Shown piece by piece: positions 21,735 to 56,452 of a stretch of 64,000 nt of DNA. Numbering within the stretch: position 1 is the first letter of the stretch; each line of letters opens with the position of its first letter. The DNA is from Rhizodiscina lignyota. Lineage: Eukaryota. The notes under the pieces are model-generated. The model ran no database searches, was not told the DNA's origin, and saw nothing but the letters and a program-made list of their open reading frames with translations. The position numbers and the translations under genes were made by a program. The stretch covers positions 372,001 through 436,000 of the forward strand of contig ML978128.1 in assembly GCA_010015805.1 (NCBI GenBank), given 5' to 3'.

Positions 21735-21840
21735 TATATAAACCCCTCGACCTTCGCTCCAACTCTCTCTTTTCTTTCCTTAGCTCTCTTTGCCTTTTGG
21801 CTTAGATCAAGTGTAGTATCTGTTCTTTTCAGTTTAATCT
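21735..21840 (+). promoter_or_regulatory. Putative Pol II core promoter (TATA box plus CT-rich tract) with no evident downstream CDS
   Basis: TATATAAA at 21735-21742 followed by a pyrimidine-rich tract at ~21760-21830. Confidence 0.35.
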
Positions 21841-24233
21841 CTGAAACGAGGCTACGGCCTCATATTCAAGATTAATCTTATTTTTGGACCCCGGGGGGAT
21901 TCCTCTGTGCATGCACATGTCTCCTCCCACAGTGTCGCCGGTATTGCACTACCTCCGGCTGACGCGACCCTTTTTGATTTCTTTTCATTGACATTCCCAC
22001 CTGGTGTGGGCGGTTGACGAAGAGATTGACTTTGCTTGAAACTCCGGATGTGGTTGAGATACAATGCAGCGTGATCGATCTGTTGATGGTTTAAGTTCCA
22101 AGTGGGCGATCGGTGCTTTTGTGACCGTCGCGTGACGAGAGGGAACCTATGTGAATTACTGTCGGCAGCAACCCTCAGTGAGGGTGAAGACAAGCTTTGC
22201 AATGAAGCCAGTGTGATGCTCGACCACAGCAGGTGACGTATAAGTGTGTGCTAAGTGTATGTTGTCGTCATTTCTCTTGTTCATCATGTCCGACGGCAGC
22301 TGGGTGCACGTGGAGTTTGCCACTTGGCCTCCTCACCTCGTCGCAGCGTGTAATACCACAACTGGATAGATGCATCCAAGACTCCACTCATCACTGGATA
22401 TGACGAGTATGACTTGACAGATCCGCAGCTGTCTCATGTCGGTCAGTATGAACCAATTCTCCTGACGGAAGTATATACGTACCTCGTGGCTGGCTGTCGC
22501 TGCATGGAGCCTCATTAAGCGACGCAAAAGCACACTTGCTCGCCACAATGCGCCCTCGAATCAAGAGGGAATGCAGAGTGCTCGATCCGTAGAGCAGTAC
22601 TGCGCTACGCCTAGCGAAAAGTGGGCTCCTTAGGCTTTCCATGTGCGTTTCCCTTGCTTTGTCCACAGATCAATTCAGGTGAAGTGGTCTTACGAAGGAG
22701 ACAGCACCCCAGGCGCGACATGTTTGGGTGTGGTGGTACCGAGTTTTAGATGTGCTATGCACCCAAAATCGGTGGGGCGGTCCCTCCCGTGCTAGGTACG
22801 ACTACGCACCCCACACATGGAAGTATGGGCGCAGACTGCTCAACACACGCATGGCTGTTGGAAAGCAAAGATGTGTTAAGATTGCACATTCGCCACAGCC
22901 CATTATTCGATAGGCATCAGCAGCGAAAAGGTTTTCGCCGAGTCGACTGACAACATGCCCAGCACACCTAAAGAGCCATGCATGGACGGCATTGTCGAGG
23001 ACCGTAGACATCTCACATGCAGACAATGTCCACGTTTGACATTTGACAGCGCATGCAGGAACCCCTCCCTGCGTTATTTCGGCTTCTACGAGCCCGCATA
23101 GAGGACGGGTTGCTATGTAATTTTCTATGCAAGGATATGCTAGTTATATGGCATATATATGGCAGGGCGGGAGGAAACAAGAACATGGAAGAAATGAGAG
23201 CCACGACGAGAGTCTCTTGAAAAGCTGTAATTACGAGAATAGAAGCTTTGGACAGAAAGAAACCCACTTTCACCTCGAAGCCCTCTCAGCGGAGTCGGTA
23301 GGGTTTCGGTTCGCTGATGAGTGTGAAAAGCTTGTCCATACCCCAGGATATCGGACATTAGATGAAGGGCACAGACCCCTGAAAGAAGATTCTTTCTGAA
23401 TAGGCAGAATGCTTCTCAATATCTAGAAATTATTAGCGACATGCATCACGATAGAAAACTGTCGGCGCATTGGGTCGTGAGAGAGGCGAGCTGAAGGCGC
23501 CTTCGCGAGCACAACACGCGCTGTGGCTTTGGAAGCCGGCGCAAAATGAACGCGCGTTCGGTTCGCAATGATTTCTCGAAGAGCGGAAGATGCTCGTAGA
23601 AGACTCAGCTAGCTTGTGTATAGGTGTAAGCGAATGTCGAGTCTGGATGGCGGAGTCATTTCGCAGGCCTTGGTCCGGGGCGTTGTTGTGGCCAGTGTAA
23701 TGCATCGAAGGAATTTAATTTGCGGCCTCGTGGTGCAGCACGCACTCTGACGTCGCTGGAGGCCTGCAAAGGAGCCAAGCAATGCCGGCGGGCATGAAGC
23801 AGCCAATACCTCAGCCGTACGTCAATTAACGTCTGGCACCTGGGCTGTCTCGGAATCACAAGACCCCAGCGATCGGCCAGGATGGGCGCGTTTGCAAAGA
23901 GAGAGAAAGCCGGCCCCTGGAACTGGTGCGGTCTGAAGATCGCTGCCGCCCGCGTCGCAAATGAGCTCACGGCACACGGGAAAACTTGCTTTGCTGATGA
24001 AACAATGCGCTCCTCATATACCTTCATGCCCACCCCCGACACCACCTTTTCTGCTTGAAGGCAGCAGACAAACGACACCTACTGTTCCACCGCCGCACTC
24101 CTTCTTCGATCTTTCCTCGAGTCCACACTGTTCCGACTACCATAAGCGCGCGACCTCGCCGACCGCCAACAGCGATCTCACTGTCTTCCACTCCCTAACT
24201 CATACGTACGACTGTGTCGCGCATCTAATCGAA

Positions 24234-41600: not shown

Positions 41601-44600
41601 GCTTGTTCGCATCCTCGAATTGATTCCGATGAATTGCTAGGATGGCTGCAAAGAAACTCTTGTCCGGACTGCTGCTCTTCATGATTGACAGATAATTGTC
41701 CATAAGCTCCCATTGGCCCAGGCCCCACGCGGCGCTGGCGGCAAGCTGAGCGATTGTCTTGCGGACTTCGTTGCTTGCATGATTCCATTTCTCCTGAGCC
41801 AAGTTTGACAAGGTCTCCCATTCTCCCAGGGCATGAAGACAACGCATCTTGCCCATGGTGGTCTCAAATGTCTCACCCTCCTCTTTCTCGCGTTTCTGAT
41901 ATGATGTCAGTGCTTCTTCCCATCGGAAGAGCTTCTCGAACCATGATTCTTTCAACTCGACATCGTGATAGTTTTGTGCTTTGCGGAGAATGCCAAATGC
42001 TGCGTCGTATTGCTGGAGCTGGTTGTTGATGGATATCAGAGCTTCGACGGCGCTTGGATTTTGCTCCGCGTTGAACTCAAGCTCCTTGTAGTGTAAGGCT
42101 TTCGCAAAGGCGTGGCATTTAGCGGCGTAAAGACCTAGGGCGCGGACATCGATCGGCAATGCTTTATCGTCGTGCTCCATAAACTCAGCTAAATTCAGAA
42201 GGATATGCAAGATCTCCGGCGGCGTATTGTCAGCAGTAAGCGCCGTCTCAATAGCTCGCACAAGCTCCTCCTGATACTGATCATAGAGTTCAGTCCAGCA
42301 AGAGATAAAGGCGGAATTGAACAGGCTTCTTGCAACGGGTCCATAAACAGCAGCAAGAGGCGTGCAGGCTCTCAAAGCTTGTTGAGGTGATTCACGCAAA
42401 AGCTCGACGCTGAATCTACGCATCCATTCCATCCAGTCTTCACGCGTCGATTTAGACTCGGCATCCCAGGCACTCTTCAGATGTTGCTGGTTGACTGCGA
42501 ACTTCTTGGTCTGAATTTCGGTGAGATGCGTGTCTTCGTCATCGTCGCCATACCTCTCGTCTGGGCTTAGGTCTTGAGGTAGAGGCTCGCCTTTTTCCAA
42601 TTTGCTGACGATTCTGGTGTAGTTGTCGTGTGTGATTTTGTTCGCAGCAAGGACCTTGTTCACCGTCGGAATGAAATGTATATAGTCCGGGCCAAGTTGA
42701 TATATAAGAGCGCAGAGAGTGTCGAGAGCAGTTGCTCGGAGGTTGGGATCGCCGCCTTGCAGGATTCTGATGAGTGGGTGTATCATTCTTGCAGCGAACT
42801 CAGATATATTGACTTGTCTTGACAGCCTTCCAAGTGTCTCAATCGCCTGTCTTTTTATAGGCAATGGCTGTCCAGGTTTGTCGAACATCCGGACGATTGT
42901 TGGAATTATCAAATGCATGTACTCCTCAGCGCTGGAGCCAAAGACCAGAAATGCATGTAGGACTCTTATGGATGGGACCCTGTTGGGTGTTGTGTCTGAG
43001 TCGAGAACCCCAAGCATCAAGGGGAGGATGCTAGCCAAGTGGACTTTGAACTCTCCTTCGAGAGATCTCGAAATGGATTCAATAAGTGAGAGGATTGTTG
43101 CCTGCCTCGTCTCATCTCGGTAATTCCAGAACTCGCCAACCGTGGCCAAGATATCCGGTAGAAAAGGTCTGATGTGCTGCCTCACGATCCTCACAAGCAT
43201 GCTTAGCTGGTTGAAATAACCGTGCACATTTCCAGGCGCGGCCGCATGAATAACAGAGAGAAAGCCAGGAACAACTTGGTTGAGGAATGGCACACACTTC
43301 AAGCCCATTGTGGCGTAGATGTTCATGACTGCCTCAATGACTGCTTGATGGTATTGCGAGAGGGAAGTGTCTTTCAAAAGACCCATGAGAGTGTTGATGA
43401 CCACGGTAGGATAATATTCCTCATTCGAGGGAGTGATTCCTTGCATGATCAGCGATACGTCGGTGACCGCCTGAGCTTCGGCGACAAGGTTGCTCTCGGG
43501 TGACTGTTCAGAGATCTTTTGCTGCTCATCAGGGTCTAAAGCACCAAGAATACCCATCAACTTCACTGTTTCACGACGTAGTTCGTTCGCATCCTCTCCC
43601 TTGACAATGTTCTTGAGAATGAGTAGTAGCTCCGGATACTCTTTGTACGGCTCAATAACATAGCCGGCACTTTCGGCTAGCTTGCTCAGCGCATGTAGAG
43701 CTGCGATTCTCTTTGTGTTAGAGCTGAGGTCCTGCAAATTCTCGATAATGATGCTCATAAGCTTCGGTATGTACTGCTTCATGTCTTCGCCTCCAACAAT
43801 CGAAAGATTGCCGATAGCTTCTAGCGTTGCTGACGAGACTTCAGGGTTGTTGTCCCTTGCCTTGGGCAAGAGCACCTCAATCATTGGGGTGACATAGGGC
43901 TTGATAAGTTTCGAGGAAGCATTGACCAAATGACTGATGAGCTTCGCACTTTGCTCCTTGTTCCTCGGACTGTCAGAGTATTCGACTTCTGTGAGCAGCT
44001 GGATGAGAACCTTTCGAAGCGATGGGAAGACGTAGGCTGGATTGACGTTCGTCAAGCGGCCAATGATGGTCATAGCCGCTTCGCGAATAGGGAAAATTTC
44101 GTCATTGAGAGCCAGGAATAGCGTCCTGACATTCTCAGCTTTTCCAAGGTGCCTGTCAAAGCGTGCGTCAAGAGACATGAGCACAGTCCGGCGGATTTCA
44201 GGCTCATTGTCGGCAACTCCAACCGTAAGGAGCCTCTCGATGACATCGCCCACAACTTGAATTGCATGCTGACTGGTTTGAAACACGATCGGGTCTCGGA
44301 CAAAGAGCTGACAGCAAGTTAGAGCTGCGGCTTTTCGAATCTCCGGATTGTCGGCGTCGACATATTTTATGGCGACATCCCGCACAAACTCATTCAGCAC
44401 ATGACCCGAGAAGTCAAAACTGCCGAGTGTGTGAAGGGCTAGAGCAATTTCGGCTTCCTTCTGCACAACCACTTGAGGGTCTTTGTGATCTCGCGTCCAG
44501 ATCAGAGGTCGAGCTGCGGCGTGGTAAGGGCTGCCTAGAGCTAGGAATGGGCGGCCACAGAGAACTTGGCTGAGGAGGTCGAGAAGTTTGTCTTGGATCG

Positions 44601-49647: not shown

Positions 49648-50298
49648 AATTTCGAGAACCTCTTTTGCCTGGGCATGTGGGGAAGGCGGGATATTGCAGG
49701 AATAATCCAAGAGACTGGCTAGCCACCGTTCTGGACATGACGGAAGCGTAGACAAGTTTAGCAGTTCGCCCGAAAGTTCGTGCCTAGTTACCTGATTTCC
49801 ACGGCGGTCGACGGGCCTTGTGCATGTCTGTGTGCATGTCTGCTGGAGGAGTCAAGAGCCAGCCATCCATCCTTGCCGTGGCCGCCAGAAGGGGCCCAGG
49901 AAAATCGGATACCACGAGACGGCGTAAGACTGCGTCCGATCGCTACGCTAGGTCACACTCGAGAGTTCTCAGCCCGTCGTCGCTCCTCGCTGTTTTAAGC
50001 TTAACTTGAGATGGACAAGGCCTGAACGTCAGCTCTTGCCCCCGCCATGATGTCGCTTAGCTGTCTTTAAGCGTCCCACTCCCGCCTTTGTTCTCTCAGG
50101 TTCTGAACGTCCTTACGTCTCATCTCATATCTACCTTTGTCCCTTCGGGCTCATTTTCAACTGTTTGAGTCTATCTCTTTGCCGCTGTAGCCAAATTTCA
50201 ACTTGGATCTGTCGTCTAGTGTTCTACGATTTTGTGGAAGATAGGGAGAGAAAGAGCGCTTTTTACAGACGTTGTTGTCCAACTTCGAACTTTCCATC

Positions 50299-51903
50299 AT
50301 GGCAATTACAGACGCTATCAGGCTGACGCCGACGACCCTTGCGGGCGTGTTCGGTGTAGCCCTGTTGCTCTACACCATCTACAGCAGAATCACTTTGCGC
50401 CTGTCTCGTCAAAAAGTGATGCGAGAGAACGGATGTCAACCACTCGTGCATAAGATCCCGCTGAAGGATCCATTCCTAGGCATTGATCTCATCATGGAGA
50501 ATGCGAAGGCAGCAAAGGAGACCAGGCTCCTCGAAAACGGACAGGCCCGCTTCCACAAGTACGGCAGGACGTACAAGAGCAAGCTCGCCGACAATGACAT
50601 GATAATAACGATGGAGCCGGAGAACATCAAGACCGTCCTCTCGCTGAAGTTTAAAGATTATGTACTCACAAACCGCATGCGGCTTCTCGGGAGATTGCTT
50701 GGCCCAGGTATCTTCACGTCGGACGGAGAAGCATGGCAGCACTCGCGAGGACTGCTCCGTCCAAACTTCGCCCGTGACCAGCTTGCCGACATTGAGGCTT
50801 TCGAGGGCCATATCCAGTACATGTTCAAGGCGATTCCAACAGATGGCCGTACTGTCGACTTGCAAGAGCTCTTCTTCCGCCTGACCATCGATTCCGCCAC
50901 CGAATTCCTGTTTGGTGAGAGCGTTCACAGCCTTCGTATGACCAGCGATAAAGGTGGCCCAGACGAATCCAACTTCACTTGGGCATTCACCTACGCCCAG
51001 GATGCCGCTGTCAAGCGATCTCGATGGGGCAAGCTCGGAATCTTCTTCAGCAACAAAGACGAGGATGAAGCTTGCAGGATGTGCCACGAATTTGTGGATC
51101 GCTTCGTTGACAAGGCCGTGCGTTACCGGGAACAGGAGGATTTGGAGAAGGGATCAGGCGAGAAACCCTCGGATAAGCATTACATCTTCTTGTACGAGCT
51201 GGCCAAAGCAACCAAGGATAAGGCCCAGCTAAGGAGCGAGATGATGAACATCCTGCTTGCAGGAAGAGATACGACGGCTAGCTTGCTGAGCAATATGTTC
51301 TTCATGATCGCAAAGAACCCACAGATATGGGAGAGGTTGCAGCGCGAGGTCCAGGACACGCTTCACGGAGAATTGCCCACGTATGAGCAGCTGCGTAACA
51401 TGAAGTACCTGAAGTACTGCCTAAATGAATGTAAGAGTGTCTCGCCCAACTACTGACGTTAATGATTGCTGACATGATATCCTGTAGCTCTCCGCATCCA
51501 CCCCGTCGTCCCCGCCAACTCTCGCCGTGCGATCCGCGACACCATCATCCCTCTTGGTGGCGGTCCAGACGGCCGTTCCCCACTGCTCGTCGAGAAGGGC
51601 ACTGTCGTCGGTTATTCCCCGTGGTCCATGCACCGCGATGAGCGCTGGTACGGCCCCGATGCTGCTGAGTACCGACCAGAACGCTGGGAAAACCTCCGAC
51701 CGGGATGGGAGTACCTTCCATTTAACGGCGGCCCTAGAATCTGCCTTGGCCAGCAGTATGCGCTCACAGAGGCAAGCTACACGACAGTCAGGATCTGCCA
51801 GCAGTTTAGCAAGTTGGAGAGCAGAGATGACGGCCCGTGGAGGGAGGGCCTCACATTGACGATGTGCTCGAAGAACGGGTGCCATGTTGCACTTTCGCCG
51901 TAA
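50299..51903 (+). CDS. Cytochrome P450, CYP52 clan (alkane/fatty-acid hydroxylase-like), 2 exons
   Basis: N-terminal [23 protein letters not shown] (I-helix), ESLR across intron 51431-51487, PERW, and heme motif [10 protein letters not shown]. Confidence 0.95.
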
Positions 51904-52282
51904 GCGATGAAAGAGAATTGGTTTTTGTTAGGAAAAGGATGTGATGGAAATTTCTTTGGACTTGAGGGACGGAATGGATATGAGTTGAAAGAGATCATGA
52001 TCTACACCACGGCGGGCTCGCCCTAGGTTCGGCGTAGAGCGGCGTCCTTCGCGGGGTCTGTAAAGCCTTTTGAGACGGTCTCATGTACGTGGTAATTTTA
52101 ATTTTTTTGCCAGACCTCTCTACTTATTGTTAACCGGCCTTGTGCATTACTCAAACTCTCCGATGATAATTTCAGTGTTCAAAGTTTGATATTGTTCCGT
52201 GGTGTAGTCTTGGCATACCCCATGTGTGCAGATTGCAGATACATTTATATACAAAGTTCAATTAGCAACTCCCGGACGAATA

Positions 52283-52419
52283 GGTAGTATGGCTCAGTGG
52301 TTCGCCGCGCCTCCCCATACTTCCTCCACGCACCCCCGGAGTAATGCCGAGCCGGGGCTGTTAAGGTTTGGAATAGGTTCGATTCCCACGGGGATCGAGC
52401 CTATTCCTTTTGCTTTTTT
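52283..52419 (+). ncRNA. Putative RNA polymerase III-transcribed structured ncRNA / tRNA-derived element (not a canonical tRNA)
   Basis: A box TGGCTCAGTGG (52290-52300) at the tRNA +8 position, B box GGTTCGATTCC (52376-52386), T4/T6 runs (52408-52419) and upstream TTTATATA (~52244). Three hairpins; D and T arms do not form a cloverleaf. Confidence 0.6.
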
Positions 52420-53126
52420 CTTTTGCATATATCTCCTTTTTTTTTTATATCATCAGTCCTCCATTTGCTAGACACATTACAAGCGCCATAAATATCAATA
52501 TTCTTTGCAAGCATTACTGAGAGCTTGTAATTGCCTGTTTTCGGACTTCCTGCTCCCGCCCTTCGTGGGCCACAGGCTCTCGCACTCACGGCCGGCACAC
52601 TCACCACACGCTTTAAACAAGAAGATTGGCATGGGTTTCGAACAAGGCTGCAAAAAGAAGCGAGTAGTAGCCGATTCTTTAGGCTTGATAGACGGCACTG
52701 TCTCAACGGTTTCTACCAAGTACAGCGTTGCACACAGAGGATTGGCCTCAGCACTCGGAGCTGGTATCATCCTGTATACGCTTAAGTTTTATTTTCCTGC
52801 TGATCTTTCTTTTATTCCTCACAATGCGTCAAGCTCGCACCTCAAATGCAGATTCGCCTCTAAAAGTTGAACACTCGAAGTCATGTTGCTTAGTCATCAA
52901 GCATATTGAAACGAAAAGGCATTTCATTTCATGAGGTTGGAATAAAGTTATAGTTGCATATCAAGCCTCTACCGATTGCGCGTTAACCCTCAAGCATCGG
53001 TGCTGACGATCAATTCGCCCCTATACCAACGCCGATAATGTCAGATGCGGAAAAACCATGCACGAGGGTGGATATTTCAGTCATATTCTCGCATGACAAC
53101 AACTGGCTACACGTATTCTACTTCAT

Positions 53127-56100
53127 TCACACTCCTCCGACCCAACCCAGTACACCTCCGACTAATCCAACAAGTCCCTCGAGCCTCTCCGTCTCGAGCC
53201 TGGCCTCCTCCCTCCACAGCTGTAGCGCTTCTCTCACCTCATCCAAGCCATCCTCCTCACCTGACAGCAGCAGACTGCCGTGGCATTTGACCCACACGCC
53301 GACCCACACATTGACGAGCTCGAAGTCCCTCCGCTCCCTTACGCGCGTAGTGATGGCGTTGAGGAAGGTCACCAACTCGGTATACGGAGGGGCCGGGTCG
53401 AGACTCCTGATCGCAAGGTCGGCAGCTGAAGGAGGAAGGGCGGCGAGGTACTTGGTTAGTCGGGCGTAGTGTTCAGTGCTGGCGGATGTCGATGCAGTGT
53501 GCAACAGGGAAGTGAAAGTATCGCGATCTGCCGTGCGGCCGATGGCCGTGGACTTCGATAACCGAGACAACTCATTGCTCTGTTTGTCCGCTGTCCCTGA
53601 GCTTGCAACAAGTTCTTTCGAACTAGCGTCACGCTTCGACGCTGAAGAATCTTGTATGCTGGGGAGGAAGAATGGAGCCTTCTCAGGTGCTTTAGGAGGC
53701 TCTTTCGGCTTGTTCCTCTCACGAACGAGATCCAGATTCCGCAATGTCTGCCACTGAGCTTTTGGAACAAGACTCAGGGTGACCAGGTCTTTGCTCAGCT
53801 GGTCGATTTCTGGCAGAGCCGCCACATCATCGTCGTCGCCTTCACCAAGCTCATCGTTCGGTGCACCATTAACGTCGGAATTCGATTCTGTAATGGCAGA
53901 TGCGATGAGAGTCGAGCCACCTTCACCACTTGCAGAAGGAAGTTGGACGAGATCTGCGACATCTTCTGCCGCGATTCGCCGTGTCGGAACGTGCGTGAAC
54001 AATGTACGGTTTGTCCAGATGTCAATACCAACACTGTCAGAGGAGGATGTCGCCAGATACTCTCCGGTGTTGGAGAATGCCAGCGCGGTACATTGTCCGC
54101 GTAGTTGGAATGCGTCGATAAGATGTGCAGTGGGAAGATCCCATATCCGCACTGTAGATCGAGGCGCTTTAGAGATAGCTGAACCCTTCCTCGAAGATTC
54201 CGCCATTTCAGATGATGCTGCAACCATCCACCGTCCGTCATTTGAGAACAAAAAGTCAGCGATGGCAGTCTCGCAACCCCAGAGTTCGCGGACGAGTTTC
54301 TTAGTTGCAATATCGATTATGCGTATGCACGCATCCGAGCAACTCAACGCGAGCAGATCACTCGACCGATGGAAGCGTAGCCCTGTGATTGTAGTCATGG
54401 GAGACCAATCAAGCTCATACGTGAGAGAGCCGCTGGAGAAGTCCCAAAACTTGATCTTGCCATCCAACGAACAGCTGATAACAGTTCGGTTGAGATTATC
54501 GACGACAATCCCCGTGACAGGTCTGGTGTGCTTTCCTTGACCCTGATGAAACTTCGGAGAATCTGAGGTAGAAGCCTCGGAGTGGGGTTGAAGCTGCAGC
54601 AGCTTGAGACGCTTTGCTTGTGCCGGTGTCAGGCGTGGCGGAAACCGTCTTCGATGAATACCAGACTGCAGATTGAACATGTCGACTCCACCGCTCGCTG
54701 AGCCGACCAGGGCAAAGGTGCCACAGGGTGACATTGCCACAGCTGTGACATTCGCACCATCCCCGGTCTCGAACGCCCATCTGCCAGCTCGCTTGCGTCC
54801 CCAAAACCAAGTTCGGGCAAACTTGTCTCCCTCATGGCCTGTTATGACACTTTCCCAGCCCGTAGTAGCGCTCTTTTCTGTGCTGTTGGAACCTTTGCTC
54901 TTGGATCCCTTCCCACTCGTCCATATACTCTTCTCTCCAGGCATTGCACCCATGCCCCCATCGCGGTTCATAGAGCACGCCATGCATGTGATTCTTGGGA
55001 CCTTCAGATCTTCTAAGCTCATGCCCTTATCGCGCTCATGAAGGGTAGCGTGGCTGAGCAGTCCCATCTTTTTGGCCTTTTTACGCGATGCGCCCTGACT
55101 CAGCTCAGTACTTTGGCCATCCCTTCGCAGACTCCAACCCCAAAAGCTTCGATCATTCGAGGCACTGAGAATCCATTTCCCTCCAGCCTCTGCGCCGTCG
55201 AAATCTGAGGGTAAAAATTCCAATGTCGATACGGGTGCGGCGTGACCTGCTCTGGAATGCAGGATTCGCGGAACTGGACTAAAGGGCGTTGCATCAAATA
55301 TCCACGTCTTGAGACTGTTGTCAAGCCCACTTGATGCGATTATGTGCTGCCCGGCCAGGAACTCGATCTTACTTATGCCTCCCGCAGCCTTTTGCCCGTC
55401 CGTCAGAGACGGCAGAGGCGGATTATGGGCCCCATAAAGCACGCCCATTTTGCGTCCTCCTTGATTCAGATCCCATATCGATATATCTCCAGCTTCAGTT
55501 GAAGCAGTAGCCATCACACCTTCCTCACGTCCATCGTGCCCTGCGCCGAGTCCATCAGTGCGGAAAGTTATCGACGTAACTGGATATTTCTCAGAGCCAG
55601 CCATGATCGTGAGGATTGGGCTATCTGCCCTAATATCACGTATGACTACCGGCCCACTTGCGTATGCGATGGCAAGAAGAGAGAGAGCGGGCGCGGCTTC
55701 GAGCGCCGTGACAGCTCCGATGGACTTGCTCGGAGGCTCTAGTGTATGGATCAACTTGCTTGTGCTGACATTCCATATTTGTACCGATCCGTCTCTTCGA
55801 CCAACAAACACTTTGTTTATGTAGGTTGGAACCGTGCTGATGACACCGGTAAAGCTGGGTAATTGCCCGCTTCGTGTCGGCTTGCTATTGTAAATCGTCG
55901 TGTGGTGCTCGAGGGTGAACGCATTCCAGACCTCTATCCGATTTAAACAGCATGCCGCAATCCATGTCCCAAAGACGATTATTCGTTTAATGTCATCCTG
56001 GAAGTCCTCTGGAAGCGGCAATTCGTCCACTTTCTTGCCGCGCTTAAATATCCAGACACCGCTCTGCGTATTTGACCTTGAGTCCCCGAATGCCGCTATA

Positions 56101-56452
56101 ACCTTGTCTTTCCATGATGCAGTCGCTGTTATAGTCGTGGGGGTTTGCGGACGGGTAATGAAGACAAGGTTAAGTCCTCTACGGACATCGTAGGTTTGAA
56201 GACTTCCGCCGACGGAAGTAGTCAATTGGAAGCTCGTCTTGCCCAGCGGGACAGAGGTGAATGGCACGGTGGTAGGAGATACAAGCCCGACTGTCTGTTA
56301 AAAAGAATTAAAAATTAGAATTAAGTTCAAAGCATCAAGTTGCCTATACTCACTCTGAACGGCGCGAAAAGTTTAGATGTTGTCCGCTTCACTGGGGTAG
56401 CTTCTGGTCCCCCATTTACCCTCTGGCGTTTGACAGATCGACCGCTGTCCAT
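53127..56452 (-). CDS. UTP21: U3 snoRNA-associated protein 21 (WD40, SSU processome), 2 exons
   Basis: Exon 1 ends SKLFAPFR, then intron ~56353-56295. Multiple WD40 repeats and the Utp21 C-terminal motif RERNKPKEPPKAPEKAPFFLP. Confidence 0.95.

Follow-up and report, generated by a model that had tools for sequence, protein, structure and literature searches.

A candidate Pol III-type unit with a tRNA-gene promoter layout located between two convergent fungal genes

Results

Genomic setting of the element

The window analysed in this work is a stretch of 64,000 nucleotides (64 kb) of eukaryotic, fungal-looking DNA, in which an element of about 175 bases, carrying all the start and stop signals of a Pol III gene, sits between two fungal genes. 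One neighbour is a cytochrome P450 gene on the + strand, with two or more exons (50245-51456 and 51478-51903), and the other is a UTP21 gene (53127-56297, - strand). They form a convergent pair, and the element occupies the 1.2-kb gap that separates their 3' ends. A coding reading of the element was rejected, as the open frames located over or beside it (52208-52468 and 52102-52284) matched no Pfam family at E values up to 1; the open frames 52472-52870, 52401-52712 (- strand) and 52987-53469 likewise matched none at E values up to 0.01.

Other features of the window include a complete U2 snRNA gene at 21780-21973 (+ strand; RF00004, 159.1 bits, model positions 1-192), the sole Rfam family reaching its gathering score within the 64 kb. 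The intergenic gap also holds a perfect 11-nt inverted repeat, CTACACCACGG at 52002-52012 and CCGTGGTGTAG at 52197-52207, whose arms are 184 nt apart. Some 80 nt separate the second arm from the element downstream of it, and together with the T that precedes it this arm resembles the 5' end of a tRNA; ARAGORN returned nothing credible for this arm as a tRNA start. The pairing of TCCGTGGTGTAG (52196-52207), taken as a tRNA 5' end, with CCACGGG (52386-52392) was discarded, the T-arm register being 4 nt off.

Promoter and terminator signals

An initial annotation of this DNA had proposed a small Pol III RNA gene with a TATA-like box, an A box at the tRNA +8 position, a B box and a T4-GC-T6 run, and all of these signals were located, at the positions it gave, by reading the + strand. 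A TATA-like sequence, TTTATATA, occupies 52244-52251, and it overlaps the TATA-like box TATATACAA (52246-52254), which is common to other loci of the genome (see below). From this box it is 37 nt to the tRNA-like +1 (G52283) and 44 nt to the A box, TGGCTCAGTGG (52290-52300; pattern TRGCNNAGTGG), which falls at position +8 when G52283 is taken as +1. The B box, GGTTCGATTCC (52376-52386), is separated from the end of the A box by 75 nt and is the sole match to GGTTCGANNCC on both strands of the 64 kb. The terminator-like run begins 22 nt 3' of the B box, directly after the last of three hairpins described below, and is composed of T4 (52408-52411), GC (52412-52413) and T6 (52414-52419). In yeasts, T4 by itself is a weak terminator. 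A longer T run (T10; repeat spanning 52434-52446) is found 15 nt past T6, and could represent a putative back-up terminator.

When considered separately, the two boxes occur at chance level, with one B box found against 0.56 expected and two A boxes found against 0.85 expected in the 64 kb. Their combination was assessed in 4000 simulated windows generated with a first-order Markov model, which contained 1873 B boxes in total; a strict A box located 20-120 nt 5' of a B box was found in only one of them. The order of the boxes, their spacing and the T run after the B box, together with the upstream TATA-like box, correspond to the type-2 Pol III layout that had been attributed to the element, and given the rarity of the A and B co-occurrence in the simulations (1/4000), this layout did not come together by chance. 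The window has one further strict A-box match, TAGCCAAGTGG (43032-43042, + strand), which has neither a B box nor a T run within the next 180 nt, and it was therefore taken as a chance occurrence.

Predicted fold of the element

The minimum free energy fold of 52283-52410 reproduced all three hairpins of the initial annotation in the same positions, at -59.1 kcal/mol (z -4.8; none of 200 shuffles equal). Hairpin 1 (52283-52324, + strand) has a 10-pair outer stem (52283-52292/52315-52324) with one U-U mismatch (T52285/T52322), and it encloses the A box as well as GTGG-TTCG-CCGC (52297-52308), a UUCG-capped stem of four pairs, one of them G-U. Hairpin 2 (52334-52357, + strand) is formed by CCCCGG (52334-52339) and CCGGGG (52352-52357) around a 12-nt loop. 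Hairpin 3 (52370-52407, + strand) is a near-perfect palindrome of 38 nt in which 17 pairs (52370-52386/52391-52407), including two G-U pairs (T52378-G52399 and T52384-G52393), close a CACG loop, with the B box contained in the 5' arm.

These hairpins differ considerably in their departure from shuffled sequence. Hairpin 3 lies far beyond chance (z -8.1; 0/300 shuffles equal), hairpin 1 is marginal (-14.2 kcal/mol, z -2.4; 4/300) and hairpin 2 is at chance level (z -1.3; 32/300), while hairpins 1 and 2 taken jointly gave z -0.9, with 48 of 300 shuffles equal. As neither hairpin 1 nor hairpin 2 is clearly better than shuffles, the proposed three-hairpin body rests statistically on hairpin 3, and it stands in that part only.

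On the + strand hairpin 3 reaches -28.2 kcal/mol, compared to -21.3 kcal/mol on the - strand, and this difference of 6.9 kcal/mol between modelled folds may be taken as a weak hint of selection at the RNA level. The initial annotation had read G-U wobbles in the stems as a sign of such selection, an argument that is weakened here, since it concerns just the two G-U pairs of hairpin 3 and two transitions of this kind are not rare. A scar of repeat-induced point mutation (RIP) was also considered as the origin of these pairs. RIP needs far longer repeats and prefers CpA; with arms of 17 nt and candidate C-to-T sites located in CpT and CpC rather than CpA contexts, this origin is unlikely.

The foot of hairpin 3 shares a direct repeat, GAATAGGT, with the predicted 5' end of the RNA (52278-52285 and 52371-52378, + strand). 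The first seven letters, GAATAGG, are found at both 52278-52284 and 52371-52377, and either copy can pair with CCTATTC (52401-52407). When a terminal panhandle between GAATAGG and CCTATTC was enforced, the fold reached -44.4 kcal/mol against -60.0 kcal/mol for the free fold, a cost of 15.6 kcal/mol.

Further observations concern possible remnants of tRNA arms. Excising 52386-52400 by eye leaves a stem of eight pairs closed by TTCGATT, a canonical T loop, and on this basis hairpin 3 may be a T-arm-like hairpin that was lengthened through inverted duplication. Right after hairpin 2, CTGTTAA (52358-52364) resembles the anticodon loop of an Asn (GTT) tRNA; it forms no anticodon arm, because a complementary stem strand exists upstream and is absent downstream, and the resemblance may be either a trace of tRNA ancestry or chance.

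The element is neither a tRNA gene nor a member of an Rfam family at threshold

ARAGORN found no tRNA gene in the whole 64-kb window with the intron option either on or off, and only poor calls at lowered thresholds. In a permissive Rfam covariance scan of the 351 nt from 52150 to 52500, with E values up to 10, no tRNA-family match was obtained, and the would-be T stem of the element has three of five pairs and its acceptor strands are mismatched. The earlier view that this is not a tRNA is corroborated by these searches and by the failure of computational intron removal (see Discussion). U6, 5S, SRP and RNase P/MRP RNAs, none of which had been recognized in the initial annotation, were also missing from 52150-52500, both at Rfam gathering scores and at E values up to 10. 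No family reached its gathering score over the element, and the permissive scan gave four weak matches, among them mir-354, the best miRNA-family match (17.9 bits, with 50 needed), and Vault (15.0 bits, with 34 needed). The element is neither a tRNA nor a member of an Rfam family at threshold.

Other copies of the promoter-proximal part

In order to describe copies of the element, the contigs of the one public sequencing run listed as containing the stretch, with a share of words of 1.00 and probably derived from the source genome of the window, were compared with 52000-52700 at 80% likeness; as the DNA source is probably identical, these contigs do not constitute independent support. Four contig records matched, one of which was the window's own DNA (0 differences). 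The second and third records match 52260-52302 with three differences each and then end, and the fourth matches 52273-52308 with two differences and continues unlike the window. Taken together, these three records define a 5' module at 52260-52308 (+ strand; 2-3 differences) that contains the predicted-start region, the 5' strand of hairpin 1, the A box and the GTGG-TTCG-CCGC mini-hairpin. The element is thus not an entirely unique gene, given that the TATA box and these promoter-proximal 49 nt recur at other loci.

The contig loose ends, with 30 letters each, were further compared with the window by hand. For two pieces, the upstream loose ends give a consensus in which all nine letters of TATATACAA are found in the same register (52246-52254), and the flanks have diverged, with agreement at 5 of 16 positions upstream of the box and at 1 of 5 between it and 52260. 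As the register is kept and the flanks differ, the shared unit extends from the TATA box to 52308, the TATA box being an island of identity. The two upstream pieces had depths of 145.5 and 175.7 and the downstream piece that they share a depth of 326, compared to 154.4 for the window's contig, which suggests two further loci with one common downstream sequence. In these other copies GCTACC, located 19 nt past the end of the shared part, can pair with GGTAGT from the 5' strand of hairpin 1; this pairing, read by eye from 30 letters, hints that hairpin 1 may be kept there with a longer loop.

Past the shared part, the remaining two thirds of the element, which hold hairpin 2, the B box and hairpin 3, had no other copy at 80% likeness or above in the contigs of the run. 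As it appears single-copy there, the locus could have arisen by fusion of a partial duplicate with unrelated DNA; the other loci could in turn hold a bona fide RNA gene. Within the 64-kb window, BLASTN of 52230-52430 recovered the element itself and its own inverted arm, and the remaining matches were of 9-14 nt with E values of at least 0.59. Metagenomes scanned for the two-box pattern and for a 19-mer taken from the 5' module gave 0 matches in each case, and strings of the element had no occurrence in the literature searched. The TATA box is in register among the copies, and a copy made through RNA would start downstream of it, which points to duplication as DNA with the promoter element kept, and not through RNA.

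Discussion

Predicted transcription of the element

Considering the signals and copies described above, we favour a reading to which we give about even confidence: the element, probably transcribable, would belong as a diverged copy to a small family of Pol III-type units that have tRNA-promoter ancestry and were duplicated as DNA. Such a unit would keep the promoter logic of a tRNA gene and no longer encode a tRNA, its nearest known relatives in kind being the AfuSINE2 sequences of Aspergillus. Transcription of the element, the points where it would begin and end, and whatever role the RNA may have are inferred from the sequence.

In the proposed course of events, TFIIIC would bind the A box (52290-52300) and the B box (52376-52386) and place TFIIIB on TATATACAA (52246-52254), and Pol III would initiate near 52271-52278 on the + strand, a start zone predicted from two spacing rules. 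In yeasts, Pol III starts about 28-32 nt past the first T of the TATA box, which agrees with 52271-52278. The other rule places the start 9-12 nt 5' of the tRNA-like +1, which here corresponds to 52271-52274 (as given in the part of PMC3082873 drawn on here). Termination within T4-GC-T6 (52408-52419) would then release an RNA of about 131-149 nt, in which the final 38 nt ahead of the U residues would form the very stable 17-pair hairpin, possibly shielding the 3' end.

Alternative explanations

The most serious alternative, which we regard as possible but clearly on the improbable side, is that of an inert relic: part of another Pol III gene, namely its promoter and the first ~30 bases of its transcribed region, would have been duplicated as DNA and joined to unrelated sequence with a B-box palindrome, and the product would now be either silent or the source of a transcript with no role. 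This is what one would read from sharing with other loci that is limited to the TATA box and 52260-52308, from hairpins 1 and 2 that together are no better than shuffles (z -0.9), and from the lack of a cloverleaf and of any tRNA-model match up to E = 10. However, the locus is complete, since its B box fits the consensus and is suitably spaced and a T run follows 22 nt further on, a completeness that is unexpected for a random fusion, and the combination of A and B boxes arose in only 1 of the 4000 simulated windows. The same completeness of promoter and terminator would fit the opposite extreme, an undescribed structured Pol III ncRNA gene, or small paralogous family, that is under selection and has a cellular function. 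The TATA box kept in register among copies with differing flanks, the greater stability of hairpin 3 on the + strand (-28.2 vs -21.3 kcal/mol) and the possible persistence of hairpin 1 at the other loci, where its 3' strand would be another one, as read by eye, also argue in this direction, but hairpin 2 is at chance level, hairpin 1 is marginal and the strand argument is carried by just two G-U pairs, and we consider such a gene unlikely. More doubtful still is a reading in which the element would belong to a lineage-specific family, in a filamentous ascomycete, of predicted structured Pol III RNAs of ~135-145 nt, with a common promoter cassette made up of the TATA box and an A-box hairpin, fast-diverging bodies and the B box held in a 17-pair hairpin abutting the terminator. 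Such a family would be a putative fungal counterpart of small regulatory RNAs derived from tRNAs, such as 4.5SI or BC1, or a terminator-defined hairpin precursor.

The remaining alternatives are far less probable. A retroposed copy of a tRNA-derived SINE, which we consider improbable, would be short, with tRNA-type A and B boxes and partly multicopy sequence as in this element, and it has a named precedent in Aspergillus, as described in the relevant part of PMC5063351. Nevertheless, the TATA box lies upstream of the predicted start and is common to the copies in register, and a copy made from RNA should lack it. The head of a SINE had been one of the suggestions of the initial annotation, and it finds no backing in the flanks: the lone flanking direct repeat, TTTATAT (52244 and 52444), is at chance level, since 486 of 2000 control pairs shared a word of at least seven letters; moreover, the TATA box itself is one of the two copies of this repeat. 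There is also no A-rich or simple-repeat tail, the element ending in its own T run; the 64-kb window has no second copy; and the 5' region has the boxes yet no similarity to the tRNA model. With target-site duplication and tail absent, the element was not filed as a SINE. Even less probable is a tRNA gene split by mRNA-type introns, to which an AG immediately 5' of GTTCGATTCC and the Asn-like CTGTTAA after hairpin 2 could be ascribed. From 52180-52440, the 127 GT..AG segments with lengths of 15-200 nt were removed one at a time and in all non-overlapping pairs, but only two of the resulting 1721 products received an ARAGORN call; both calls were poor, with two mismatches in the acceptor stem, three of five pairs in the T stem and a start located 90 nt upstream. 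In addition, the letters that follow the T loop, CCCAC and then GGGGATC, have no complementary 5' strand upstream. Hardly credible, finally, is a vault-RNA-like panhandle RNA with paired ends and internal A and B boxes. Cmscan did align 52278-52410 end to end with the Vault model, using GAATAGG/CCTATTC as terminal stem, but this alignment scored 15.0 bits where the gathering score is 34 (E = 1.5 in the 351-nt search), and forming the panhandle in place of hairpin 3 costs 15.6 kcal/mol. Vault particles are generally reported to be missing from fungi.

Comparison with known systems

The diverged, DNA-duplicated Pol III-type unit favoured here shares its layout with several known systems. Canonical tRNA genes (RF00005) have the same consensus boxes, an A box at +8 relative to a 7-nt stem strand, a TATA box and a T-run terminator, but the element has no cloverleaf, its boxes are 75 nt apart, its T stem has three of five pairs and its acceptor strands are unmatched. 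Vault RNA (RF00006) presents the same order of parts, from a 5' stem strand and an A box across a variable middle to a B box near the 3' end, a 3' stem strand and a U run. In contrast, the element scores 15 bits where 34 are needed, its terminal stem loses to hairpin 3, and its host is a fungus.

The closest parallel is found in AfuSINE2 of Aspergillus fumigatus Af293, described in the part of PMC5063351 drawn on here as sequences of 140-493 bp that are present in low or single copy, carry A and B boxes yet lack a cloverleaf, and are transcribed in 5 of 8 cases. Both AfuSINE2 and the element are thus short, in low or single copy in a mould genome, and provided with A and B boxes within a non-cloverleaf 5' part, and the B-box letters GGTTCGATTCC are identical in the element and in one AfuSINE2 family (PMC5063351, same part). 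The definition of AfuSINE2 in that source comprises target-site duplications of 4-14 bp and a tRNA-unrelated tail (PMC5063351), whereas the element has no target-site duplication beyond chance and no tail, and its TATA box is common to copies. This likeness is one of description, and three motif strings were absent from one supplementary text file. We take the element to be a probable low-copy Pol III repeat or young gene family of the AfuSINE2 sort.

A second parallel is provided by the rodent 4.5SI RNA genes, which are tRNA-derived and have A and B boxes as well as a TATA-like box at -31/-24 that aids transcription, according to the part of PMC10137851 considered here. The element and 4.5SI have in common tRNA ancestry (putative in the element), internal boxes, a TATA-like box about 30 nt upstream and small lineage-restricted families. 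However, 4.5SI belongs to mammals, is a proven RNA and has no sequence relation to the element, which would be a functional analogue with a candidate RNA. 

The initial annotation had also suggested a milRNA precursor with products of ~21-25 nt from hairpin 3. In the miRNA precursors of bovine leukemia virus, the 3' end is set by the terminator. These precursors are Pol III-transcribed hairpins with an internal type-2 promoter, as described in the part of PMC12498455 drawn on here, and the element resembles them in its internal type-2 promoter and its hairpin RNA, which here is predicted. Nevertheless, the stem of the element has just 17 pairs and lies at the end of a predicted RNA of ~135 nt; products of ~21-25 nt appear strained for a stem of this length, and mir-354 scored 17.9 bits against 50.

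Significance

Low-copy Pol III units of tRNA-promoter type are already known from AfuSINE2, as presented in the part of PMC5063351 drawn on here, and the locus studied would add another case. The promoter cassette common to its otherwise diverged copies argues for duplication at the DNA level and against retroposition. If transcribed, the element would represent one further locus in the little-studied set of non-tRNA Pol III units of moulds. Furthermore, it places a candidate TFIIIC site between two convergent genes, and TFIIIC-bound sites of such kind can act on chromatin between genes.
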